From: a virus
Lineage: Duplodnaviria; Caudoviricetes
Length of the DNA: 64,000 nt
IMG/VR virus record: IMGVR_UViG_3300038673_000220
Location: 1-64,000 of that record
Direction: 5' to 3' (one strand)
Under the pieces are notes generated by a model. That model did not search any database, was not told the DNA's origin, and worked only from the letters and a program-made list of their open reading frames with translations. Both the position numbers and the translations under genes were made by a program. Below, in pieces: positions 3,230 through 63,547 of the stretch; position 1 is the first letter of the stretch, and every line of letters starts with the position of its first letter.

Positions 3230-4267
3230 ATGAATATTTTACAAAGTAAACTTAACCTTATTTTAGATGGTGGTTTGGGATCATCGGGTAAAGGCCTCTT
3301 AGCTGAGTATCTTGGATTGACTAACCATGTTGATATAGCGATAACATCAGCAGCAAGTAATGCTGGTCATTCGTTCATCTATCATGGGAAGAAGAATATT
3401 TCCAAATACATCCCAGTATCAGGTATAATAAACAAACGATCAACCATCTATCTTTGTTCTGGAGCTATCATCAATCCAAATATTTTCATAAAGGAGGTCG
3501 AGCATTTCGATATTGCACCTGATAGAATTATCATCCATCCGAATTGTGCTGTTATAGATGATGATGATATTCTTAATGAAAAAGATAAGGATAGCGCTAC
3601 AACGAAGTTGTCATCAACTCAATCTGGTGTAGGGAGAGCTTTATCTCGGAAGATCTTAAGAGAATCTGAATTAGCTGGATCTAATCCTATACTTAAACGA
3701 TTCACTCAAGATTTCGATCTTCAGTATTTATTGGATCAAGGTTGTACAGCTCTTATGGAAATCCCACAAGGTATGGACCTTAGCCTAAATGGTCCTTTTT
3801 ATCCTTATTGTACATCTCGTGATATTTCTGTAAGCTCAGCTTTGAATGATGCTCAAGTTCATCCATTCTATCTAGGAAAGGTATGTTGTGTTATAAGGAC
3901 TTTCCCAATACGAGTTGGGAATATCAAAGATGAGAATGGAAATGAGATCGGGTACAGTGGACCTTTCTATGATGATGCTGAGGAATTGTCATGGAAGGAT
4001 ATTGGTGTTGATCCAGAAATAACAACCGTAACAGGTAGAGAGAGACGAGTCTTTGAATTTTCAATGAAGCAATATCGAAAGATGATTAAGTCATTCCGTC
4101 CTGATTATGTTTTGTTGAATTTTGGTAATTATCTTGAATTAGATCGATTAGATGATCTCGTTAAACGATTACCTAAAGTAACTCACATCGGACTTGGTCC
4201 AGAAGTGAGTGATATAATTACGATTAAAGAATTCAAAAATGCTGTTAAATACTCAAGAATAAAATAA
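3230..4267 (+). CDS. purZ: PurZ-type adenylosuccinate synthetase homolog (N6-succino-2-amino-2'-deoxyadenylate synthase)
   Basis: GSSGKG where PurA has GDEGKG (Asp to Ser); SNAGH, STQSG, YPYCTSRD, RTFPIRVGN, TTVTGRERRVFEFS; LNFGNY where PurA has TKLD; short 345-aa length as in PurZ. Confidence 0.8.
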   Translation: MNILQSKLNLILDGGLGSSGKGLLAEYLGLTNHVDIAITSAASNAGHSFIYHGKKNISKYIPVSGIINKRSTIYLCSGAIINPNIFIKEVEHFDIAPDRIIIHPNCAVIDDDDILNEKDKDSATTKLSSTQSGVGRALSRKILRESELAGSNPILKRFTQDFDLQYLLDQGCTALMEIPQGMDLSLNGPFYPYCTSRDISVSSALNDAQVHPFYLGKVCCVIRTFPIRVGNIKDENGNEIGYSGPFYDDAEELSWKDIGVDPEITTVTGRERRVFEFSMKQYRKMIKSFRPDYVLLNFGNYLELDRLDDLVKRLPKVTHIGLGPEVSDIITIKEFKNAVKYSRIK

Positions 4268-9136: not shown

Positions 9137-9147
9137 ATATATATCAT
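9137..9147 (+). promoter_or_regulatory. ATATATATCAT promoter motif
   Basis: Recurring motif directly after a terminator. Confidence 0.7.
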
Positions 9148-12098: not shown

Positions 12099-12109
12099 AT
12101 ATATATCAT
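12099..12109 (+). promoter_or_regulatory. ATATATATCAT promoter motif
   Basis: Recurring motif about 50 bp upstream of a strong RBS. Confidence 0.7.
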
Positions 12110-12159
12110 TAATTTGATATTTACTTTAGAATTCAGCATATTACTAATAAGGAGAGATC

Positions 12160-27363: not shown

Positions 27364-27381
27364 TCCAAAATTCAGATATAT

Positions 27382-28773
27382 ATCATACTAAGAAGATGAC
27401 CCTTTCCTTTAGGTGAGGGGGTACTGAGAATCATAAATTATCCATACAGAACGCATAATCCAAAAGGATCAATCATGAACCTAACAGCTCAGGTAAAACT
27501 GGAGCCTGATGCTGATCAGGCTTTATCATTAACTCGAACCATGCAGCTCTTTAATGATGCTTGCAACTTTGTAGCTAAATTAGCTTTTAAGCGTAAAGTA
27601 TACCATCCAGTAGCGTTGCACAATCTCAAGATCAGCGACAGCACACTTTATTACCATCTTAGAGCTACTTATCCAAAGCTCAATTCGATACAAATCGAAC
27701 TGGTTTTTCGTAAGGTGGCTGATGCTTATAAAACACGCTTAAAACGCTTAAAGAAGAGGAAGAAGCTAAAGCATCCTTGCAGGTTCAAAGAGATGAGCAG
27801 CATTCCTTATAATCATCTTATCAGTAACTATAAGCTTATCGTAGCTTCGGCTGGAGATAGAGCAATCACTCCACACCTTTCAGTCGTTTTAGTTGACGAT
27901 GCTCGATACAAACGTTCTAAGATCGATTACATCGTAGCTGATCATCAGCGTAAGATATTAGCTAACGCTGTTCCTGGAACGTTTGGCGGAGAATCGCGGA
28001 TCTCATTCCGAAAAGGCGCTTTTTATATCAACATCCCAGTGGAGCAATGCGTTGCTCCAGAAGCTATCGATCCGATCAGATCGATTGGAGTGGATCTTGG
28101 AGTAGTGAATATCGCAACTACTTCGTATGGTAAGATCTTCAGTGGAGAGCTTATCGAAAATAAGCGGTTGAAGTTCCAGAAGCATCGATCTTCATTACAA
28201 AAGTGTGGATCGAAATCAGCTAAGCGTCGGTTGAAGTCAGTAGCTGGTAAAGAAGCACGTTTTCGCAAAGATCTCAATCATTGCATCAGTAAAGAGCTCG
28301 TTGTTGCGGCTAAAGGCACAAGTTCACGGATCGTGTTGGAGGATCTCACCAACATCCGAGAACAGACAACGGTTAGGAAGCAGCAACGAGCTCGTCATCA
28401 TGGTTGGAGTTTTGCTCAATTACGTGAGTTCATCGGCTACAAAGCAGCTATGGCTCAAGTGGAAGTTAAGGTTGTGGATCCGAGCTACACGAGCCAAAGA
28501 TGCAATAACTGCGGAAGCATCAGTCGATCGAACCGAAGAAATCAGTTCCGATTCAGCTGCAAAAGTTGCGGTCATGATGCTCATGCAGATTACAACGCCG
28601 CTTGCAATCTAGCTTGGTTAGGAGATAATGGTGCTGAACGATTCGTTAAGGATGAGTTGATGCACTAAAGACTATGTTGGGGCTGTAACTGTCAACCAGC
28701 CTTATGTAGGGGTGCTATCGGAGCAATGATAGAGCTACTTACAAGCCTCTTCCTTTAGGTGGAGGTTGTTGAC
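27382..28773 (+). mobile_element. non-autonomous IS200/IS605 (IS1341-type) element, copy 1
   Basis: Appears identical to 45896..47287; left hairpin CCCTTTCC-TTTA-GGTGAGGG, right hairpin CCTCTTCC-TTTA-GGTGGAGG, ends in TTGAC; no TSD, no tnpA; left end is 27382 or 27384. Confidence 0.9.
27475..28668 (+). CDS. tnpB: TnpB RNA-guided endonuclease
   Basis: RuvC triad GVDLG / VLEDL / ADYNAA; TSQRCNNCG...CKSCG zinc finger. Confidence 0.95.
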   Translation: MNLTAQVKLEPDADQALSLTRTMQLFNDACNFVAKLAFKRKVYHPVALHNLKISDSTLYYHLRATYPKLNSIQIELVFRKVADAYKTRLKRLKKRKKLKHPCRFKEMSSIPYNHLISNYKLIVASAGDRAITPHLSVVLVDDARYKRSKIDYIVADHQRKILANAVPGTFGGESRISFRKGAFYINIPVEQCVAPEAIDPIRSIGVDLGVVNIATTSYGKIFSGELIENKRLKFQKHRSSLQKCGSKSAKRRLKSVAGKEARFRKDLNHCISKELVVAAKGTSSRIVLEDLTNIREQTTVRKQQRARHHGWSFAQLREFIGYKAAMAQVEVKVVDPSYTSQRCNNCGSISRSNRRNQFRFSCKSCGHDAHADYNAACNLAWLGDNGAERFVKDELMH

Positions 28774-28793
28774 CATTTAGTTGATATAAAGAA
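28600..28793 (+). ncRNA. putative TnpB omegaRNA/reRNA; guide CATTTAGTTGATATAAAGAA (28774-28793)
   Basis: Structured right end of the element; the two copies diverge right after TTGAC; 5' boundary approximate. Confidence 0.7.
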
Positions 28794-28894
28794 GATACCA
28801 TTGAGACGATATGGTAGGACTTCTTTGTTTATTATTTTACAAAGATGATGTTAATGTGGCCGAATAAACGGTAAATTCAAATGAGGAGAAAATC

Positions 28895-35859: not shown

Positions 35860-35870
35860 ATATATATCAT
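35860..35870 (+). promoter_or_regulatory. ATATATATCAT promoter motif
   Basis: Recurring motif upstream of the thyX RBS. Confidence 0.7.
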
Positions 35871-38334: not shown

Positions 38335-38385
38335 AAAAGTATCTTGATGAGTATTTATTTTTTATGCTATTATAAATTTTATCAG

Positions 38386-38396
38386 ATATATATCAT
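38386..38396 (+). promoter_or_regulatory. ATATATATCAT promoter motif
   Basis: Recurring motif. Confidence 0.7.
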
Positions 38397-38437
38397 TTGG
38401 TAACAATAACTGATCTAATAAATTTTGGAGGTTTATT

Positions 38438-45650: not shown

Positions 45651-45905
45651 ATGAAAGGTAGACGTAATCCGAACATTCGTTATGACAGCCCTATTCGTCG
45701 TTGGATTTCTGACAAATTACGTGAAAAAGGAATCAATGATCCTCTTCAATTCAGACAGTTGTGTTATGATTATTTTAAAGAGCATACTGATATTGATCAG
45801 AGTCGTTATATCAGTAAAGCTTCTGATTTGATGAAACCTATTTTAGGTCAATGTGTTCTTGGTAGAAAGACTGCTGGTATCATCATTGAGCATATATCAT
45901 ACTAA
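45651..45905 (+). CDS. hypothetical protein whose 3' end is interrupted by IS copy 2
   Basis: Removing 45896..47287 restores ...IIEHIISLGETHDWWKEPS* with stop at 47331-47333, directly before a terminator. Confidence 0.7.
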   Translation: MKGRRNPNIRYDSPIRRWISDKLREKGINDPLQFRQLCYDYFKEHTDIDQSRYISKASDLMKPILGQCVLGRKTAGIIIEHISY

Positions 45906-47287
45906 GAAGATGACCCTTTCCTTTAGGTGAGGGGGTACTGAGAATCATAAATTATCCATACAGAACGCATAATCCAAAAGGATCAATCATGAACCTAACA
46001 GCTCAGGTAAAACTGGAGCCTGATGCTGATCAGGCTTTATCATTAACTCGAACCATGCAGCTCTTTAATGATGCTTGCAACTTTGTAGCTAAATTAGCTT
46101 TTAAGCGTAAAGTATACCATCCAGTAGCGTTGCACAATCTCAAGATCAGCGACAGCACACTTTATTACCATCTTAGAGCTACTTATCCAAAGCTCAATTC
46201 GATACAAATCGAACTGGTTTTTCGTAAGGTGGCTGATGCTTATAAAACACGCTTAAAACGCTTAAAGAAGAGGAAGAAGCTAAAGCATCCTTGCAGGTTC
46301 AAAGAGATGAGCAGCATTCCTTATAATCATCTTATCAGTAACTATAAGCTTATCGTAGCTTCGGCTGGAGATAGAGCAATCACTCCACACCTTTCAGTCG
46401 TTTTAGTTGACGATGCTCGATACAAACGTTCTAAGATCGATTACATCGTAGCTGATCATCAGCGTAAGATATTAGCTAACGCTGTTCCTGGAACGTTTGG
46501 CGGAGAATCGCGGATCTCATTCCGAAAAGGCGCTTTTTATATCAACATCCCAGTGGAGCAATGCGTTGCTCCAGAAGCTATCGATCCGATCAGATCGATT
46601 GGAGTGGATCTTGGAGTAGTGAATATCGCAACTACTTCGTATGGTAAGATCTTCAGTGGAGAGCTTATCGAAAATAAGCGGTTGAAGTTCCAGAAGCATC
46701 GATCTTCATTACAAAAGTGTGGATCGAAATCAGCTAAGCGTCGGTTGAAGTCAGTAGCTGGTAAAGAAGCACGTTTTCGCAAAGATCTCAATCATTGCAT
46801 CAGTAAAGAGCTCGTTGTTGCGGCTAAAGGCACAAGTTCACGGATCGTGTTGGAGGATCTCACCAACATCCGAGAACAGACAACGGTTAGGAAGCAGCAA
46901 CGAGCTCGTCATCATGGTTGGAGTTTTGCTCAATTACGTGAGTTCATCGGCTACAAAGCAGCTATGGCTCAAGTGGAAGTTAAGGTTGTGGATCCGAGCT
47001 ACACGAGCCAAAGATGCAATAACTGCGGAAGCATCAGTCGATCGAACCGAAGAAATCAGTTCCGATTCAGCTGCAAAAGTTGCGGTCATGATGCTCATGC
47101 AGATTACAACGCCGCTTGCAATCTAGCTTGGTTAGGAGATAATGGTGCTGAACGATTCGTTAAGGATGAGTTGATGCACTAAAGACTATGTTGGGGCTGT
47201 AACTGTCAACCAGCCTTATGTAGGGGTGCTATCGGAGCAATGATAGAGCTACTTACAAGCCTCTTCCTTTAGGTGGAGGTTGTTGAC
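45896..47287 (+). mobile_element. non-autonomous IS200/IS605 element, copy 2
   Basis: Appears identical to 27382..28773 (offset 18514). Confidence 0.9.
45989..47182 (+). CDS. tnpB: TnpB RNA-guided endonuclease
   Basis: Same protein sequence as 27475..28668. Confidence 0.95.
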   Translation: MNLTAQVKLEPDADQALSLTRTMQLFNDACNFVAKLAFKRKVYHPVALHNLKISDSTLYYHLRATYPKLNSIQIELVFRKVADAYKTRLKRLKKRKKLKHPCRFKEMSSIPYNHLISNYKLIVASAGDRAITPHLSVVLVDDARYKRSKIDYIVADHQRKILANAVPGTFGGESRISFRKGAFYINIPVEQCVAPEAIDPIRSIGVDLGVVNIATTSYGKIFSGELIENKRLKFQKHRSSLQKCGSKSAKRRLKSVAGKEARFRKDLNHCISKELVVAAKGTSSRIVLEDLTNIREQTTVRKQQRARHHGWSFAQLREFIGYKAAMAQVEVKVVDPSYTSQRCNNCGSISRSNRRNQFRFSCKSCGHDAHADYNAACNLAWLGDNGAERFVKDELMH

Positions 47288-47307
47288 TATCAGTTTAGGT
47301 GAAACTC
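47114..47307 (+). ncRNA. putative omegaRNA; guide TATCAGTTTAGGTGAAACTC (47288-47307)
   Basis: Right end of the element plus flank; 5' boundary approximate. Confidence 0.7.
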
Positions 47308-47332
47308 ATGATTGGTGGAAAGAACCATCTTG

Positions 47333-47388
47333 ATATAAACAAGGAACGCTACCATCATTGGTAGCGTTCCTTGTTTATATTTATTTTT
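47333..47388 (+). terminator. intrinsic terminator
   Basis: ATATAAACAAGGAACGCTACCA-TCAT-TGGTAGCGTTCCTTGTTTATAT. Confidence 0.85.
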
Positions 47389-55507: not shown

Positions 55508-58500
55508 ATGCAGCCGAATATTCCTATTCAATATTCAACTTTACGAGAGTACATTGAAGCTATTTCTGGTGCTCAAGTTACGACGTTGACGCAAACTGTT
55601 GATGCTAATTATGCAACGATGATGGGTTTGGTCAATGATCTTCAAACATCGATCGCTGATATCGAATCATTAAATGCGAATATCAGTGCGAACCCAGACG
55701 TTGTTCTTAACACTTCACATCGTCTGACTATTGCTGGTAACCCACATCATGTAACGAAAGCAGAAGTTGGATTAAGTGAGGTACCGAACTACGACTTTAC
55801 TGCTGAAGTTCAGATCAACAATGCGAAAGTTGGTATAACCCAAGCTCAAGCTGATGCTATCATTATTAACTCAGCGAAAGTTGGTATCACTGTTCAGCAA
55901 GCTGCCGATATCATTTCCAATAATGATCATCGTGCTATCGTATCTGGGAATCCACATCAGGTCACCAAAGCTGAAGTAGGTTTGGGTAATGTCCCGAACA
56001 TCGATTGTACGAATGCTTCGAATATCACTTCGGGTATTTTACCAACGAGTGTTCTTCCTCCATTAGCTATTACTGATACATATTCAGTTGCTAATGAGGC
56101 CGAGCAGTTAGCTCTTACTGTACAAAAAGGTGATATTGCTGTTCGTACAGATCTTTCAAGATCGTATATCAATCAGACTGGTGGTAATGAGGCCATGACT
56201 GATTGGCAGGAGCTCATGACTCCAACTGATCTTGTTCTCTCTGTTAATGGCTATACTGGAACAATCCAACTTGTTACTACAGATATTCCAGAAGGTACCA
56301 ACTTCTATTATACAGAAGCACGTGTATCTAACAATATTGATGTTGCTACCAATACTGCAAACCGTCACACTCACGGAAATAAAGCTATCCTTGATGCAAC
56401 AACTGCATCTTTTACTACTGAGATTTCCAACACCATCGATCTCAACTCCGCTCATCGTGAGACAACTGTAGGTAATCCGCATCAGGTTACTAAAGCTGAT
56501 GTAGGTTTGAGTAATGTACCAAACCACGATTTTACCGATGAGGTTGCCGCCAATACTGCAAAGGTCGGTATCACTCCTGAACAAGCTGCTGACATTGTAG
56601 CTGCTAATGTTCATAGAACTACTACCAGCGGTAATCCTCACGCTGTAACTAAAGCTGAAGTTGGTTTAGGTAATGTACCGAACACTGATTTTACAGCTGA
56701 TGTTCTTGCAAATAATGCCCATCGTGCAATTATTACGGGTAATCCGCATCAAGTTACTAAAGCCGAGGTTGGCTTAAGTAATGTTCCAAATCATGATTTC
56801 ACTGCCGAAGTTGATGCGAATACTGCAAAGGTTGGTATCACTCCTGAACAAGCTGATGCTATCGTAGCCAATACTGCAAAGGTTGGTATCACTCCTGAGC
56901 AAGCTGCTTCTATCGTAGCATCTGACGCTCATATTGCAACTGTTACTGGCAATCCTCACCAAGTAACGAAAGCTGAAGTTGGCTTAAGTGAAGTCCCCAA
57001 CGTTGACTGTACCAATGCGAGTAATATCACTACTGGTACTCTACCAACAAGTGTTCTTCCTGCATTGGCTATCAGTGAAACTTTTGTAGTTGCCGATGAA
57101 ACCGCTCAGTTGGCTCTCACTGTACAGAAAGGTGATGTTGCTGTTCGTACCGATGAAGGAAAATCTTACATCAATGCGACTGGTGATAACACTGCGATGA
57201 CTGATTGGCAGGAGCTCTTAACTCCTACTGACACCATCTTAAGTGTAAATGGTCAAACTGGTAACGTCATTCTAACCACTACGAATATTGCAGAAGGGAC
57301 TAATCTCTATTATACTGAGGCTCGTGTATCTGCGAATGTTGATGTTGCTCTTAATACAGCGAACCGTCATAACCATACCAATAAATCTATTCTTGATGGT
57401 ACTGAAGAATCTTTCACTACTGTATTAAAGAATAATATCTTAACCAATAATGATAAGGTTGGTATCACCACTGAACAAGCTGATGCTATCGTGGCCAATA
57501 CTGCAAAGGTTGGTATCACACCACAGCAAACTGCTGATATTATCTCCAACAACACTCATCGTGCTATCGTATCTGGTAATCCGCATCAAGTCACTAAAGC
57601 TGAAGTTGGATTAGGTTTGGTTCCGAATCACGACTTCACCGATGAGGTTGATGCGAATACTGCGCATAAGAATACTATTACTGGTAATCCGCATCAAGTT
57701 ACTAAAGCTGAAGTAGGATTAGGTAACGTACCGAATACTGACTTTACTGGTGATATCGCTGCATCGAATGCTCATATTGCAACTATCACTGGTAATCCGC
57801 ATCAGGTCACTAAAGCTGAAGTAGGATTGGGTCTTGTACCTAATCATGACTTTACAGCTGAAGTTGATGCGAATACTGCAAAGGTTGGCATCACTCCTGA
57901 ACAAGCTGCTGCAATTGTAGCGAATACAGCACACGCTGCTATCGTAACTGGTAATCCGCATCAAGTTACTAAAGCTGAAGTAGGATTAGGTAATGTTCTA
58001 AACATTGATACGACAAATGCTACGAATATTACTTCAGGTATGCTTCCTTCAAGCGTACTTCCTCCTATTGCTATCACTGATACATATTCTGTAGCAAGTG
58101 AAGCTGAGCAATTAGCTCTTGATATCCAACGTGGTGATATCGCTGTTCGTACAGATATTAATCGTTCGTACATTAATAAACTTGGTGTTAACGAAGCTAT
58201 GTCTGATTGGCAGGAGCTTTTAACACCAATCGACTCCGTTCTTTCTGTTAATGGATTCACTGGAGCTGTCGTTCTGACTACATCCAGTATTTCTGAAGGG
58301 ACTAATCTCTATTACACTGAAGATCGTGTTATCAATAACGTTGATGTTGCTACCAATACTGCAAATCGTCATAATCATGGAAATAAAGCGATCCTTGATG
58401 GAACGACTGCATCATTCACCACTGAGATCTCCAACACCATCGATCTCAACTCTGCGCACCGTTCTACTATCACCGGAAATCCTCATCAAGTAACGAAAGC

Positions 58501-61500
58501 AGAAGTGGGATTAAGTGATGTTCCTAACCACGACTTCACTGCTGAAGTTGCTGCCAATACTGCAAAGGTTGGTATCACTCCTGAACAAGCTGCATCTATC
58601 GTTGATGCAAATACGCATATCGCAACTGTAACGGGTAATCCTCATGCAGTTACTAAAGCTGAAGTCGGTTTAGGTTTGGTTCCGAATCACGACTTCACCG
58701 ATGAGGTTAATGCTGCTACAACTCATATCGCAACTGTTACTGGTAATCCTCATCAAGTTACTAAAGCAGAGGTTGGTCTGAGTGAAGTACCTAACCACGA
58801 CTTCACAGCTGAAGTTGCTGCGAACACTGCAAAGGTTGGTATCACTCAGGAACAAGCTGATGCTATCGTAGCCAATACTGCAAAGGTTGGTATTACAGTT
58901 GAGCAAGCTGCTTCTATCGTAGCATCTGACGCTCATATCGCTACTGTTACCGGCAATCCTCATCAAGTTACTAAAGCAGAGGTTGGTCTGAGTGAAGTAC
59001 CGAATGTGGATTGTACGAATGCTTCGAATATCACTACTGGTACTCTACCAACAAGTGTTCTTCCTGCATTGGCTATCAGTGAAACCTACGTTGTTGCTGA
59101 TGAGACTGAACAGTTAGCCCTTACTGTACAGAAGGGTGATATCGCTGTTCGTTCTGACCTTAATCGCTCGTATATCAACTCCACTGGTGATAACACTGCG
59201 ATGACTGATTGGCAGGAGCTCTTAACTCCTACTGATACTATTCTCACAGTTAACGGCCAGGTTGGTACTGTAGTTCTTACTACTACGAATATCGAAGAGG
59301 GTACAAACCTCTATTACACTGAAGCACGTGTATCTGCAAATGCTGATGTTGCAGCAAATACTGCAAATCGTCATAATCATGCAAATAAAGCTATCCTTGA
59401 TGGTACTGAAGAATCCTTCACTACCGTTTTGAGAAACAACATCCTTACTAATAACGATAAGGTTGGTATCACCACTGAACAAGCTGATGCTATCGTAGCC
59501 AATACTGCAAAGGTTGGTATCACTGCTCAACAGGCTGCCGATATCGTTTCTAACAATACTCACCGTGCTATCGTAACTGGAAATCCGCATCAAGTCACCA
59601 AGACTGAAGTAGGATTAAGCGAAGTACCGAATCACGATTTCACTGCTGAAGTAAACGCCAATACTGCACATCGTGGTATTTTGGAAGGTAACCCGCATCA
59701 AGTTACTAAAGCTGAAGTTGGCTTAAGTGAAGTACCGAATCATGATTTCACTGCAGAAATGCTTATCGCATTAACTCACGTTGAAACAATTACCGGTAAT
59801 CCGCATCAAGTCACTAAAGCTGAAGTAGGTCTCGGTAGCGTTCCGAATCATGATTTCACTGCTGAAGTTGCAGCCAATACTGCTAAGGTTGGTATCACTC
59901 CTGAACAAGCTGCAGCTATCGTAGCCAATACTACTCATGCTGCCATTGTTGCTGGTAATCCTCATCATGTAACAAAAGCTGAAGTTGGTCTGAGTGAAGT
60001 ACCTAACGTCGACTGTACCAACGCCTCGAATATTACTACAGGAACTCTTCCTTCAAGTGTTCTTCCAGCTATCGCTATTACTGAAACTTTTGTAGTATCG
60101 AACGAGCTTGAGCAACTTTCTTTAGATGTTCAAGAAGGTGATATCGCTGTTCGTTCTGATCTTAATCGTACCTTTATCAATATCACTGGTACGAATAACG
60201 CTATGACTGATTGGCAAGAACTCGCTACTCCTACTGATACCATTTTGAGTGTTAATGGTCAGACTGGCACTGTAGTTCTTACCACGACGAATATTGACGA
60301 AGGTACTAACCTTTATTATACAGAAGCACGTGTATCTAACAACGTTGACGTTGCAGCAAATACTGCAAATCGCCATAACCATGCAAATAAAGCTATCCTT
60401 GATGCAACAACCGCCTCTTATACGACTGCGGATGTTGATACGTTAGCTGCTGCTGATGCTCATCGTTTAACAACCACTGGTAATCCGCATCAGGTCACTA
60501 AAGCTGAAGTTGGTTTGGGTAATGTACCTAACTTAGATTTCACTTTAGATATTGCTGCGTCGAATGCTCATATCGCAACTGTAACTGGTAATCCGCATCA
60601 GGTCACGAAAGCTGAAGTAGGATTGGGTCTTGTACCTAATCATGACTTTACAGCTGAAGTTGATGCGAATACTGCAAAGGTTGGCATCACTCCTGAACAA
60701 GCTGCTGCAATCGTAGCGAACAGCGCTAAAGTTGGTATCACTCCTGAGCAAGCTTCTGATATCACTTCTAATAATAATCATAGATTAACTGTTACTGGTA
60801 ATCCGCATAATGTAACAAAAGCTGAAGTTGGATTAGGCTCTGTACCTAACCATGACTTTACAGCCGAAGTTGCTGCGAATACTGCAAAGGTTGGTATCAC
60901 TACTCAGCAGGCTGCTGATATCATTTCTAATAATGAACATCGAGCCATCATTTCTGGTAATCCGCATCAAGTTACTAAGGCTGAAGTTGGGTTGAGCGAT
61001 GTTCCTAATCACGACTTCACAGCTGAAGTTAATGCGAATACAGCTCATACTGCTATCGTAGCTGGTAATCCGCATCAGGTAACGAAAGCTGAAGTTGGTC
61101 TTGGTAATGTACCTAATGTCGATTGCACCAACGCTAGCAATATCACCACTGGTACCTTACCTTCTTCAGTATTACCTCCATTAGCAATCACTGATACTTT
61201 TGTTGTTGCTGACGAAGCTGCTCAACTTGCATTGGTTGTTCAGAAAGGTGATGTTGCAGTACGTACTGATGAAGGTCGCTCGTATATCAACTCCACTGGT
61301 GATAACACTGCGATGACTGATTGGCAGGAGCTCTTAACTCCTACTGATACCATCTTGAGTGTTAATGGCCAAACTGGAACAGTTGTTTTAACTACGACAA
61401 ACGTTGCTGAAGGGACTAATCTCTATTATACTGAGGCTCGTGTATCTGCAAATGCTGACGTAACACTTAATACAGCTAATCGTCACAATCATACAAATAA

Positions 61501-63547
61501 AGCAGTTCTTGACGCTACAAATGAATCGTTTACTTCTTCTATCTTAGCTGAAATCAATATTAACACTGCAAAGGTTGGTATCACTGTTCAGCAGGCTGCT
61601 GATATTGAAGCAAATAATTCTCATCGTTTAACTACGAGTGGTAATCCTCATGCTGTAACCAAAGCTGAAGTAGGTTTGGGTAATGTACCTAACTTAGATT
61701 TCAGTTCTGCTGTTGCTGCTAATACAGCTCACGCTAATACCGTTGCAGGTAATCCGCATCAGGTTACTAAAGCTGAAGTTGGTTTAGGTAATGTACCAAA
61801 TACTGACTTTACAGCTGATGTTGCTCTGAATAACGCTCATAGAACAACTACTACTGGTAATCCTCATCAAGTTACTAAAGCTGAAGTTGGGTTGGGTCTG
61901 GTACCGAATCATGATTTCACTGCTGAGGTTGCTGCCAATACTGCAAAGGTTGGTATCACCACTGAACAAGCTGCCGATATCGTTTCTAACAACGAGCATC
62001 GTGCAATCACCAGCGGTAATCCTCACGCTGTAACAAAAGAAGAAGTTGGTTTAGGTTTAGTACCAAACCACGACTTCACTGATGAAGTTAATGCTAATAC
62101 TGTATTGGCTCATAGTCATGCAAATAAACCTATTCTTGATGCTACAACCTCAGCCTTCACTACTGAACAAGCTGATGAAATCGTAGCATGTCATTCACAT
62201 CGTATTGATACAAGCACTAATCCTCACGGTATCACCCCGATCATGATCGGCGCTGAAACTCCAGAAGGTGCTCAAACTAAAGCTGACACTGCTGAGCATA
62301 ATGCTAATCTGTATACTGATAGCTTTGTTCTTCAATCTCCGAATTCTTTGTTATTTGAAGCTGCATTGAGAAACTCCTTGGCACTTGATAAGGGTGTTGG
62401 TATGATCAACTTCTCAAGAGCCTCTGTTGCAAATCATCTTGATCGTTACGGTATCGTTCGTGCTTCTGAAGCAAACGTTCCTCGTTTTAATAAAGATGGT
62501 TTGTTGATTGAAGGTCGGAGTACTAACTACTTTGTTGGATCTAAAGATGCTAACGTTTTTGATAAAACAAATTGTCGTGTTGAACTCAATAAACAATACG
62601 ATGCATCTTTTGAAGCTACTGTTGATATCATTTCGATCGATGTTCCTGCAACTGATTGGAAACTTTCAAAAGTTATCACTGACATGTATCTTGAAGAAGG
62701 TAAATACGTTACATTCAGTGTTCGTTTAAAATCTATCACTGATACCCAAGTTGAACTTGCTATTCAAGATTCTGCAGGTATCAACGTTGGGGATTTCGGT
62801 GGAACTAAAGTTATCACTCTGAATGAGTATCTGACTCGTTATGATTTCACTATATTCGTTGAAAACGCAACAACTGGTCATCCCGTTGTCGAGGTTCGTG
62901 GTTTAACGAAAACTGAAGGTGAAAGCTTCGGTATCGTCGATATGCAAGTTGAGCCTTTACCGTTCGTATCGAGTGTTATCGAAACTGTTGATGCGCCAGT
63001 TACTCGTGAACCTGATCGTGTTTATATTCCTTATGTTGAGAACTATCCTGGAAGCTTAGTTGATAAAACCATCAGCTTTGATGTAAATGTTATCGGTACT
63101 ACTGAAGATGTTCATCGTTGTTTCTGTTCTGGCGATCTTCAGATGTATATTGGTAACGGTACTCCTGGAAATCATATGACTCGTGTTGGTATGTCTTCTG
63201 GTGAAGAGACTGAATGGGTTGAGAAGATCGGTAAGTTCCGATTCGGTATCACCTATGATGCTACTTTACAGGAATTGAAGATGTTCCATGATGGTGAGAA
63301 AGTTGCAACGAAAACTAATGTAACTAAGGCTGATCCGCCTTTGGTTGATTCAACTTCTTATGATCAATTCCTTGCTGAAGTTTATCCAACTCTTGATCCT
63401 TCTTCTTATGGGTTAGCTATCTTACAGATCCCGCTTGATGTAATGCAAGCTACCATCCGTTTCGATACTGGTAATCCTTTTATGACTATCTCTAATATCA
63501 GGATCACTGACAAAGTGTTGACTGAGAAACAAATGCTTACTTTCTAA
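55508..63547 (+). CDS. giant repetitive tail or head fibre protein
   Basis: About 28 NPHxVTKAEVGL repeats, six WQELxTP...SVNGxTG modules, C-terminal lectin-like domain. Confidence 0.85.
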   Translation: MQPNIPIQYSTLREYIEAISGAQVTTLTQTVDANYATMMGLVNDLQTSIADIESLNANISANPDVVLNTSHRLTIAGNPHHVTKAEVGLSEVPNYDFTAEVQINNAKVGITQAQADAIIINSAKVGITVQQAADIISNNDHRAIVSGNPHQVTKAEVGLGNVPNIDCTNASNITSGILPTSVLPPLAITDTYSVANEAEQLALTVQKGDIAVRTDLSRSYINQTGGNEAMTDWQELMTPTDLVLSVNGYTGTIQLVTTDIPEGTNFYYTEARVSNNIDVATNTANRHTHGNKAILDATTASFTTEISNTIDLNSAHRETTVGNPHQVTKADVGLSNVPNHDFTDEVAANTAKVGITPEQAADIVAANVHRTTTSGNPHAVTKAEVGLGNVPNTDFTADVLANNAHRAIITGNPHQVTKAEVGLSNVPNHDFTAEVDANTAKVGITPEQADAIVANTAKVGITPEQAASIVASDAHIATVTGNPHQVTKAEVGLSEVPNVDCTNASNITTGTLPTSVLPALAISETFVVADETAQLALTVQKGDVAVRTDEGKSYINATGDNTAMTDWQELLTPTDTILSVNGQTGNVILTTTNIAEGTNLYYTEARVSANVDVALNTANRHNHTNKSILDGTEESFTTVLKNNILTNNDKVGITTEQADAIVANTAKVGITPQQTADIISNNTHRAIVSGNPHQVTKAEVGLGLVPNHDFTDEVDANTAHKNTITGNPHQVTKAEVGLGNVPNTDFTGDIAASNAHIATITGNPHQVTKAEVGLGLVPNHDFTAEVDANTAKVGITPEQAAAIVANTAHAAIVTGNPHQVTKAEVGLGNVLNIDTTNATNITSGMLPSSVLPPIAITDTYSVASEAEQLALDIQRGDIAVRTDINRSYINKLGVNEAMSDWQELLTPIDSVLSVNGFTGAVVLTTSSISEGTNLYYTEDRVINNVDVATNTANRHNHGNKAILDGTTASFTTEISNTIDLNSAHRSTITGNPHQVTKAEVGLSDVPNHDFTAEVAANTAKVGITPEQAASIVDANTHIATVTGNPHAVTKAEVGLGLVPNHDFTDEVNAATTHIATVTGNPHQVTKAEVGLSEVPNHDFTAEVAANTAKVGITQEQADAIVANTAKVGITVEQAASIVASDAHIATVTGNPHQVTKAEVGLSEVPNVDCTNASNITTGTLPTSVLPALAISETYVVADETEQLALTVQKGDIAVRSDLNRSYINSTGDNTAMTDWQELLTPTDTILTVNGQVGTVVLTTTNIEEGTNLYYTEARVSANADVAANTANRHNHANKAILDGTEESFTTVLRNNILTNNDKVGITTEQADAIVANTAKVGITAQQAADIVSNNTHRAIVTGNPHQVTKTEVGLSEVPNHDFTAEVNANTAHRGILEGNPHQVTKAEVGLSEVPNHDFTAEMLIALTHVETITGNPHQVTKAEVGLGSVPNHDFTAEVAANTAKVGITPEQAAAIVANTTHAAIVAGNPHHVTKAEVGLSEVPNVDCTNASNITTGTLPSSVLPAIAITETFVVSNELEQLSLDVQEGDIAVRSDLNRTFINITGTNNAMTDWQELATPTDTILSVNGQTGTVVLTTTNIDEGTNLYYTEARVSNNVDVAANTANRHNHANKAILDATTASYTTADVDTLAAADAHRLTTTGNPHQVTKAEVGLGNVPNLDFTLDIAASNAHIATVTGNPHQVTKAEVGLGLVPNHDFTAEVDANTAKVGITPEQAAAIVANSAKVGITPEQASDITSNNNHRLTVTGNPHNVTKAEVGLGSVPNHDFTAEVAANTAKVGITTQQAADIISNNEHRAIISGNPHQVTKAEVGLSDVPNHDFTAEVNANTAHTAIVAGNPHQVTKAEVGLGNVPNVDCTNASNITTGTLPSSVLPPLAITDTFVVADEAAQLALVVQKGDVAVRTDEGRSYINSTGDNTAMTDWQELLTPTDTILSVNGQTGTVVLTTTNVAEGTNLYYTEARVSANADVTLNTANRHNHTNKAVLDATNESFTSSILAEININTAKVGITVQQAADIEANNSHRLTTSGNPHAVTKAEVGLGNVPNLDFSSAVAANTAHANTVAGNPHQVTKAEVGLGNVPNTDFTADVALNNAHRTTTTGNPHQVTKAEVGLGLVPNHDFTAEVAANTAKVGITTEQAADIVSNNEHRAITSGNPHAVTKEEVGLGLVPNHDFTDEVNANTVLAHSHANKPILDATTSAFTTEQADEIVACHSHRIDTSTNPHGITPIMIGAETPEGAQTKADTAEHNANLYTDSFVLQSPNSLLFEAALRNSLALDKGVGMINFSRASVANHLDRYGIVRASEANVPRFNKDGLLIEGRSTNYFVGSKDANVFDKTNCRVELNKQYDASFEATVDIISIDVPATDWKLSKVITDMYLEEGKYVTFSVRLKSITDTQVELAIQDSAGINVGDFGGTKVITLNEYLTRYDFTIFVENATTGHPVVEVRGLTKTEGESFGIVDMQVEPLPFVSSVIETVDAPVTREPDRVYIPYVENYPGSLVDKTISFDVNVIGTTEDVHRCFCSGDLQMYIGNGTPGNHMTRVGMSSGEETEWVEKIGKFRFGITYDATLQELKMFHDGEKVATKTNVTKADPPLVDSTSYDQFLAEVYPTLDPSSYGLAILQIPLDVMQATIRFDTGNPFMTISNIRITDKVLTEKQMLTF
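55700..62250 (+). repeat. hierarchical coding tandem repeat (~1 kb super-unit)
   Basis: Many near-identical aatccgcatcaagttactaaagctgaagt and aatactgcaaaggttggtatcac units. Confidence 0.9.

Follow-up and report, generated by a model that had tools for sequence, protein, structure and literature searches.

A TnpB-only IS200/IS605-type element in a putative jumbo phage, with a predicted ATAT target motif and two natural guides

We analysed a 64,000-nt stretch of a Caudoviricetes virus genome (positions 1 to 64,000 of IMG/VR virus record IMGVR_UViG_3300038673_000220; hereafter the window), which carries two identical copies of a tnpB-bearing element about 1390 nt long. The full record comprises 149,134 nt and is judged about 54% complete. 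We consider the element to be, probably, a non-autonomous TnpB-only IS200/IS605 insertion sequence (IS1341-like) that was recently mobile in the phage. For its uncharacterised 397-amino-acid (aa) TnpB, the comparison of the two copies yields a concrete prediction comprising a target-adjacent motif (TAM), two natural guides and an RNA scaffold; the best in-silico prediction is a TAM of 5'-ATAT with guides CATTTAGTTGATATAAAG (copy 1) and TATCAGTTTAGGTGAAAC (copy 2). We read the genome that hosts the element as that of a phiKZ-like jumbo phage; a phiKZ-type major capsid gene is located a short way upstream of copy 2.

Identical copies and the pairing rule at their ends

Position-by-position comparison of 27378-28773 with 45892-47287 gave 1396 nt with 0 mismatches (100% identity). 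Beyond this shared block the flanks of the two copies are unrelated on either side, except for ATAT(AT) at the left. Both copies are also present on a 182.6-kb Joint Genome Institute (JGI) contig, and a Logan contig from SRR24332389 is exactly 1396 nt long and corresponds to the shared block. A contig from SRR8327730 (L005) starts at the equivalent of 27380, runs through TGAC and continues into a third, different flank (TACGGTAAGTAATC). The two 100%-identical copies, together with the third site in another sample, point to recent movement inside the phage. The three different right flanks (copy 1, copy 2 and L005) fix the boundary directly after TGAC, and related elements diverge exactly past GTTGAC. 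The G+C content of the element is 43.5%, versus 35.1% in the remaining window.

Both ends carry an imperfect hairpin. The left one (27400-27419, CCCTT-T-CC TTTA GG-T-GAGGG) has ATGA directly 5' of it at 27396-27399, the right one (28746-28765, CCTCT-T-CC TTTA GG-T-GGAGG) has CAAG directly 5' at 28742-28745, and the block terminates with TGAC at 28770-28773; all three tetranucleotides are thus where an earlier reading of the DNA letters (the sequence-only reading) had put them. The TTTA loop and a T.T mismatch are common to both hairpins, which are distinguished by two compensatory swaps of base pairs (one C-G to T-A, the other T-A to C-G). The element ends, CATAC... and ...GTTGAC, are not inverted repeats, and neither terminal inverted repeats nor a target-site duplication are present. 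An alternative register of the left hairpin involving G.T pairs (foot A27399/T27422, guide GATG) was rejected, being misaligned with the right hairpin and predicting TCnC, which is absent.

In IS608, the left guide (GL) AAAG pairs with the left cleavage site (CL) TTAC and the right guide (GR) GAAT with the right cleavage site (CR) TCAA, and the pairs C-3/G-35 and T-4/A-34 are given explicitly (PMC3201880; PMC5934647). The sequence-only reading had quoted this as guide bases 1, 2 and 4 pairing with cleavage-site bases -3, -4 and -1, which is the published rule (PMC3201880; PMC5934647). Applied here, the rule converts ATGA to ATnT and CAAG to TGnC, and the matches that had been claimed, to ATAT on the left and TGAC on the right, hold. 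ATAT lies 5' of both copies at 27378-81 and 45892-95, with a second, overlapping ATAT at 27380-83 and 45894-97. With three specified bases, the right end would match by chance with p about 1/64, while for the left end chance matches would be expected at about 2-3 of 64 placements. ATAT occupies 1.07% of positions in the remaining window, and its presence before two independent insertions is therefore not attributed to chance.

The rule is also supported by related elements, which we label by their contigs. The right ends of L011, L012 and L102 read ...ACTTACAAG-hairpin-nnGTTGAC. CAAG and TGAC are retained in L099 and L104, where the hairpin or spacer between them is shorter, and L094 and L105 terminate in TGAT, which G.T wobble would accommodate. 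Covariation was tested in the two closest relatives with visible left ends: L012 has GL GAGA with TCAT 18 nt upstream, L102 has GL GAGT with TCAA 17 nt upstream, and both elements start TGATA directly past the cleavage motif. Between L012 and L102, guide base 4 changes from A to T and position -1 from T to A, a compensatory change that supports the IS608 rule in this clade. The base at +1, immediately past TGAC, is T in five of six right flanks and C in one (28774, 47288, L005:1395, L011:3796, L012:3807 and L102:1646), and the first element base of L012 and L102 is T. The TnpA of IS608 has a tight +1 pocket in which purines are disfavoured (PMC5934647), and the predicted cleavage sites of the clade display a similar +1 pyrimidine preference.

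The features of the two copies are as follows.

27380 to 27383, + strand: target motif and predicted TAM of copy 1, ATAT (preferred placement, fitting ATnT from GL ATGA; alternative 27378-27381)
27384 to 27474, + strand: left end (LE), starting CATAC, with GL ATGA at 27396-27399 and the left imperfect palindrome (IPL) at 27400-27419
27475 to 28668, + strand: tnpB, 397 aa, with RuvC triad D207/E289/D372 and zinc finger C343, C346, C362, C365
28600 to 28773, + strand: predicted omega-RNA (right-end element RNA, reRNA) scaffold, overlapping the tnpB 3' end and the right end (RE); 5' limit approximate
28742 to 28773, + strand: right-end core, with GR CAAG at 28742-45, the right imperfect palindrome (IPR) at 28746-65 and an 8-nt spacer ending in TGAC at 28770-73
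28774 to 28791, + strand: guide-encoding flank of copy 1, CATTTAGTTGATATAAAG, the first bases past the identical block, of which about 16 nt are likely used
28786 to 28828, + strand: phage hairpin with a U-rich tail 3' of copy 1 (-13.4 kcal/mol, z -1.95), overlapping the guide from about nt 13
45894 to 45897, + strand: target motif and predicted TAM of copy 2, ATAT, inside the 3' end of an 84-aa gene (45651-45905)
45898 to 47287, + strand: copy 2 of the element, with no mismatch to copy 1
47288 to 47305, + strand: guide-encoding flank of copy 2, TATCAGTTTAGGTGAAAC, directly past the identical block
47332 to 47381, + strand: strong phage terminator hairpin 3' of copy 2 (-43 kcal/mol, z -8.6)

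TnpB and its predicted guide RNA

The open reading frame (ORF) at 27475-28668 matches Pfam OrfB_IS605 and Cas12f1-like_TNB, and its 397-aa product scores 176 bits against NCBIfam guided_TnpB (cut-off 100). D207, E289 and D372, as well as the four zinc-finger cysteines (CxxC...CxxC), are invariant in 16 relatives, in agreement with the intact D/E/D triad reported by the sequence-only reading, and the triad aligns with the GIDLGV, MEDLTNIR and ADYNAA motifs of AsCas12f. The nuclease therefore looks intact. A Foldseek search with an AlphaFold2 model of the protein (mean predicted local distance difference test score, pLDDT, 80.7) returned AsCas12f as the best match (E 9e-20), followed by other Cas12f proteins, then ISFba1 TnpB and ISDra2 TnpB. 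AsCas12f was also the top phmmer match among solved structures (E 2e-27), and the ISDra2 TnpB chain was not among the sequence-search matches listed at E <= 0.001. As judged by similarity, the protein is nearer to Cas12f than to ISDra2 TnpB. Its length, previously called compact, is ordinary for a TnpB, that of ISDra2 being 408 aa (PMC8612924).

Between the stop codon and the right end, RNA stems are conserved (GGGCUG/CAGCCU, UGUAGG/CUUACA around a variable hairpin, and the terminal hairpin), with 8 compensatory pairs in a 4-sequence alignment and 5 in an 8-sequence alignment. This right-end structure looks like an omega/reRNA-like scaffold. Rfam contains no matching family for the right-end RNA, and a minus-strand match to HEARO (20 bits versus an 83-bit threshold) was rejected as chance. 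No CRISPR repeat array was found near either copy, the right end abutting unique phage DNA. Deducing a TAM from the left flank is standard practice, and the ATAT motif and both guides proposed by the sequence-only reading survive as predictions: the rule fits, and the three flanks place the guide start right past TGAC. In ISDra2, the 3' end of the reRNA runs roughly 16 nt into the flank, and the experimentally recovered TAM, TTGAT, is the TnpA target (PMC8612924). A candidate TAM of (A)TTGA, read from copy 2 alone, was discarded, as copy 1 has TTCAGAT at that position.

A search of the window for ATAT plus guide at up to 3 mismatches recovered occupied junctions only, with TGAC in place of ATAT, and no unoccupied ATAT-plus-guide site elsewhere in the window. 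Because TGAC stands in the TAM position at these junctions, the element would not be expected to cut its own carrier. There is one near-cognate site: guide nt 1-14 of copy 1 (28774-28787) match 12107-12120 at 12 of 14 bases, with mismatches at guide positions 5 and 7, and the predicted TAM ATAT is present there, within the sequence motif at 12099 described below.

We propose that a Y1 HUH transposase supplied in trans would bind both subterminal hairpins on the top strand and locate its cleavage sites by DNA-DNA pairing, of ATGA with ATAT on the left and of CAAG with TGAC on the right. A single-stranded circle would be excised and then re-inserted 3' of another ATAT. tnpB and the right end would be co-transcribed, the 3' part of the transcript folding as an omega-RNA scaffold and the ~16 nt of flank that follow (CATTTAGTTGATATAA or TATCAGTTTAGGTGAA) serving as guide. 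The resulting ribonucleoprotein would cut phage genomes in which ATAT is followed by the flank, that is, the element-free allele left by excision or carried by a co-infecting relative, and recombinational repair from the occupied genome would restore or spread the element; occupied sites would be protected because TGAC stands in place of the TAM. The mobility part of this scheme is inferred, the nuclease part from homology. A comparable retention or homing role is described for bacterial IS605 elements in PMC8612924 and in a review (PMC13565253). Each copy is oriented like its flanking genes and lies just upstream of a phage hairpin or terminator, so phage promoters could drive transcription that ends shortly past the guide. 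Moreover, the copy 1 junction retains a full promoter-like motif ~100 nt upstream of the tnpB start.

Relatives, left boundary and alternative explanations

The closest proteins (P0002-P0016, 48-68% identity) were all encoded in metagenome assemblies. Relatives above 48% identity are without exception on metagenome contigs with phage-like neighbour genes (topoisomerase subunits, an SNF2 helicase, a 2157-aa lysozyme-domain protein and a deoxynucleoside monophosphate (dNMP) kinase), and some of these contigs reach 230-246 kb. No protein above 41% identity was found in cellular genomes among 185,579 species representatives, nor on IMG/VR contigs other than the phage's own. In L011 (65% identity, 231-kb contig) a Y1_Tnp gene lies directly upstream of tnpB, so the lineage includes autonomous elements.

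Several relatives showed further peculiarities. L011:1976-3795 is a complete tnpA+tnpB IS605-type element whose left hairpin (CTCCTTCC TTCA GGTGGGAG) resembles those of the window, while its right hairpin (CCCCTACCT...AGGTAGGGG) is similar to that of L012 and of L102; it may be a chimera, or its TnpA may tolerate different stem sequences. At L007:2517-4500, a 61%-identical tnpB starts 8 nt past the preceding gene, has no left hairpin and a decayed right end, and is flanked by two ~70-nt stretches, fragments of paralogous genes, that nearly repeat one another; this tnpB seems to be immobilised. L094 and L097 have the same tnpB and right flank, but upstream of the ATG their sequences are wholly different up to the start codon, which may reflect recombination where the gene begins or a chimeric assembly. 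For 160 distant loci (35-41% identity), an automated survey of hairpins and guides was dropped, the hairpin registers being ambiguous.

Two observations on the insertion sites bear on where the element begins. The motif ATATATATCAT occurs six times in the window by pattern count, always on the + strand (564-574, 9137-9147, 12099-12109, 35860-35870, 38386-38396, and 27376-27386 at the copy 1 junction), whereas 0.41 occurrences would be expected. Outside the element, each of the five sites is followed at roughly 50-75 nt by a ribosome-binding site and ATG, and ATATATATCAT is probably a phage promoter or transcript-start motif; at copy 1 the element's left end (CAT...) rebuilds it. Copy 2 lies within the final codons of the 84-aa gene (45651-45905, + strand) beside the phiKZ-type capsid gene, and the C-terminus (...IEHISY*) and stop codon of that gene come from the element. 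Among 5.8 billion proteins, the 84-aa gene product has no homologue except the same occupied allele.

At the left, both copies read ATATAT and then CATAC, and two cuts satisfy the pairing rule, one past 27381 with an 18-nt spacer to the hairpin and one past 27383 with a 16-nt spacer. We considerably favour C27384 over A27382 as the element start, with the second overlapping ATAT as TAM. The start at 27382 implied by the sequence-only reading is thus the less likely of the two, while its ATAT motif is unchanged, and the TAM sequence and guides are the same under either start. Under the alternative, which we regard as unlikely, the element would start at A27382 and measure 1392 nt, with the TAM at 27378-27381 and the 18-nt spacer. 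It would make the shared block exactly a 4-nt TAM plus the element, whereas a start at 27384 needs a chance AT before the ATAT of copy 2, which 7.4% of ATAT sites have. The longer spacer also equals that of L012 (18) and is near those of L102 (17) and IS608 (19), against 16 nt for the 27384 start. Finally, with 1392 nt removed, the 84-aa gene at copy 2 would stay in frame until a TGA that lies 6 nt short of the terminator, which is tidy but weak support. Set against these points, the L005 contig begins two bases inside the TAM of the 27382 start, at the very branch point that would arise were ATAT all that another copy had in common before CATAC, and a further contig (L006) demonstrates that contigs of this kind do stop precisely at the borders of repeats. 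If the element starts at 27384, copy 1 has the empty site TCAGATATATATCATTT, which is the same as 38384-38400 and contains ATATATATCAT, and the continuation of this site resembles the site at 12099 (12/14 bases); with a start at 27382 it is one AT short, (AT)3CAT versus (AT)4CAT in all five natural motif sites. A pyrimidine (T/C) follows all eight other inferred cleavage sites of the clade (six right flanks and the L012 and L102 left ends), and C27384 fits this pattern where A27382, a purine, does not; IS608 TnpA disfavours purines at +1. A boundary at 27383, which would align TCATA with the TGATA start of L012 and L102, was rejected: TATA fails all three pairings, and the promoter-like motif would be broken.

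We think it quite improbable that the TAM of TnpB differs from the TnpA target, being longer (TATAT or ATATAT) or shifted so that ATAT alone would be insufficient for cleavage. The two copies do share six bases, ATATAT, left flanks are visible for two insertions only, and TnpB TAMs of 5 nt exist, such as TTGAT of ISDra2 (PMC8612924). However, that TAM by experiment equalled the TnpA target (PMC8612924), the start of the L005 contig implies a copy without T at -5, and the promoter-like motif accounts for the AT before the ATAT of copy 1. Some other observations count against our interpretation as a whole. That the TAM of TnpB is the TnpA target is an established pattern in ISDra2, which for the 397-aa TnpB we assume. 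The hairpins by themselves are no stabler than shuffled sequence. In L011 (GL AAGA), none of the tetranucleotides at 17-18 nt obeys the rule and only TTAT at 21 nt fits, so spacer length would not be fixed. There is no tnpA in the 149-kb record, which covers only about 54% of the genome, and we therefore regard the element as non-autonomous. In addition, no empty site was recovered in any of the contig searches: exact right- and left-end patterns, used in search of empty sites or further copies, had no match among viral contigs, nor did the left-end pattern among metagenome contigs or the third-site flank among viral contigs, absences that carry little weight. Metagenome contigs likewise contained no match to a degenerate pattern of the 42-aa gene next to the third site, an identity look-up returned L005 alone, and megablast of the element against GenBank phages matched nothing.

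The missing tnpA could also mean that the element is a dead or domesticated relic, its two copies arising from segmental duplication or recombination and its TnpB fulfilling a role for the phage, such as regulation, with no flank-linked TAM or guide. Five relatives (L007, L094, L099, L105 and L106) lack a recognisable left hairpin and sit tightly between phage genes like immobilised copies, and domesticated TnpB regulators exist, according to a preprint (bioRxiv 10.1101/2023.11.30.569447). Nevertheless, the duplicated block ends exactly at the cleavage sites predicted by the rule, with unrelated flanks on both sides; a third insertion site exists; and the copies are 100% identical with a G+C content above that of the phage. 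All three catalytic residues are present and do not vary within the clade, whereas known TnpB-derived regulators are nuclease-dead. We thus hold the relic explanation to be very improbable and retain that of a recently mobile, TnpB-only insertion sequence.

Phage context and comparison with known systems

Two other features of the phage genome are worth recording. An adenylosuccinate-synthetase-like ORF of 345 aa (3230-4267, + strand) has PurZ as its best NCBIfam match (186 bits, below the 300-bit cut-off). Its best Protein Data Bank sequence matches are 6fm1/6fko, deposited as adenylosuccinate synthetase (E 1e-41), which we take to be PurZ of cyanophage S-2L, and then 7odx, with a chain named PurZ (E 4e-37). 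The phage may replace A with 2-aminoadenine, in which case ATAT would physically be ZTZT in phage DNA; the 149-kb record yielded neither a MazG nor an HD gene. At 55700-62250 there is a very large, internally repetitive gene (a 1002-nt super-repeat with 51-nt sub-repeats), probably encoding a fibre protein.

We also considered a bolder interpretation, which we advance tentatively and think rather unlikely. The clade P0001-P0016 (at least 48% identity) might constitute a phage-adapted lineage of OMEGA systems, in which the left end CAT... evolved to rebuild ATATATATCAT upon landing at the last ATAT of the motif, borrowing phage transcription, and in which TnpB would be an RNA-guided nuclease used for homing or competition among co-infecting jumbo phages. 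If so, action would take place on phage DNA, possibly in the phage nucleus and possibly on diaminopurine-substituted DNA, and such DNA would have to be accessible to, and tolerated by, both TnpB and a phage-borne TnpA. More generally, an AT-only 4-nt TAM would suit AT-rich targets, and RNA-guided homing between phages becomes a testable idea.

One of the closest known systems is IS608 of Helicobacter pylori. IS608 and the element share subterminal imperfect hairpins at both ends on one strand, a 4-nt guide 5' of the hairpin foot that pairs with the cleavage site (1/-3, 2/-4 and 4/-1), A at -2 in both cleavage sites, and insertion 3' of a tetranucleotide with a preferred pyrimidine past the cut and with neither inverted repeats nor target duplication. 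Unlike IS608, the element has no tnpA and is carried by a phage. Its target is ATAT rather than TTAC, its right cleavage site TGAC rather than TCAA, its spacers 16 (or 18) and 8 nt rather than 19 and 10, and base 3 of its left-end guide is G rather than A. In having tnpB alone between LE and RE and presumably being mobilised in trans, it corresponds to the TnpB-only IS200/IS605 elements, which we take to be the IS1341-type of the ISfinder groups.

With regard to its nuclease, ISDra2 of Deinococcus radiodurans likewise encodes a RuvC and zinc-finger TnpB of ~400 aa, whose RNA derives from the tnpB 3' end plus the right end, with a flank-derived guide and a donor-joint cleavage model; the same scheme is predicted here, although the two proteins share 14-17% identity over structural alignments. 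ISDra2 differs in its TAM (TTGAT), in being autonomous (tnpA+tnpB) and in having activity established by experiment, whereas the window element has TnpB only and is known from sequence. The type V-F effector AsCas12f shares the RuvC and zinc-finger motifs (about 21-22% identity) but belongs to a CRISPR system, while the window TnpB has no CRISPR array and would take its guide from the transposon flank. Homing endonucleases, free-standing or intron-borne, of T4-like and jumbo phages have the same expected effect, cutting an element-free co-infecting genome and being copied by repair (PMC13565253); their target is specified by protein, in contrast to an RNA plus a 4-nt motif, and the element could reach new sites if TnpA is present.

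Surveys have already described TnpB genes of large phages (PMC12607003; PMC11748809). What is new here is the TAM and guide prediction, the recent intragenomic mobility of an IS200/IS605-type element in a jumbo-phage genome, the apparent restriction of the clade to phage-like contigs, on which alone related TnpB genes have so far been found, and the landing in a promoter-like motif. The element is not a new kind of system and departs nowhere from known family logic: as far as its sequence can tell, it behaves like IS608 and ISDra2 in every feature testable, its own TnpA being the one defining feature that is missing.

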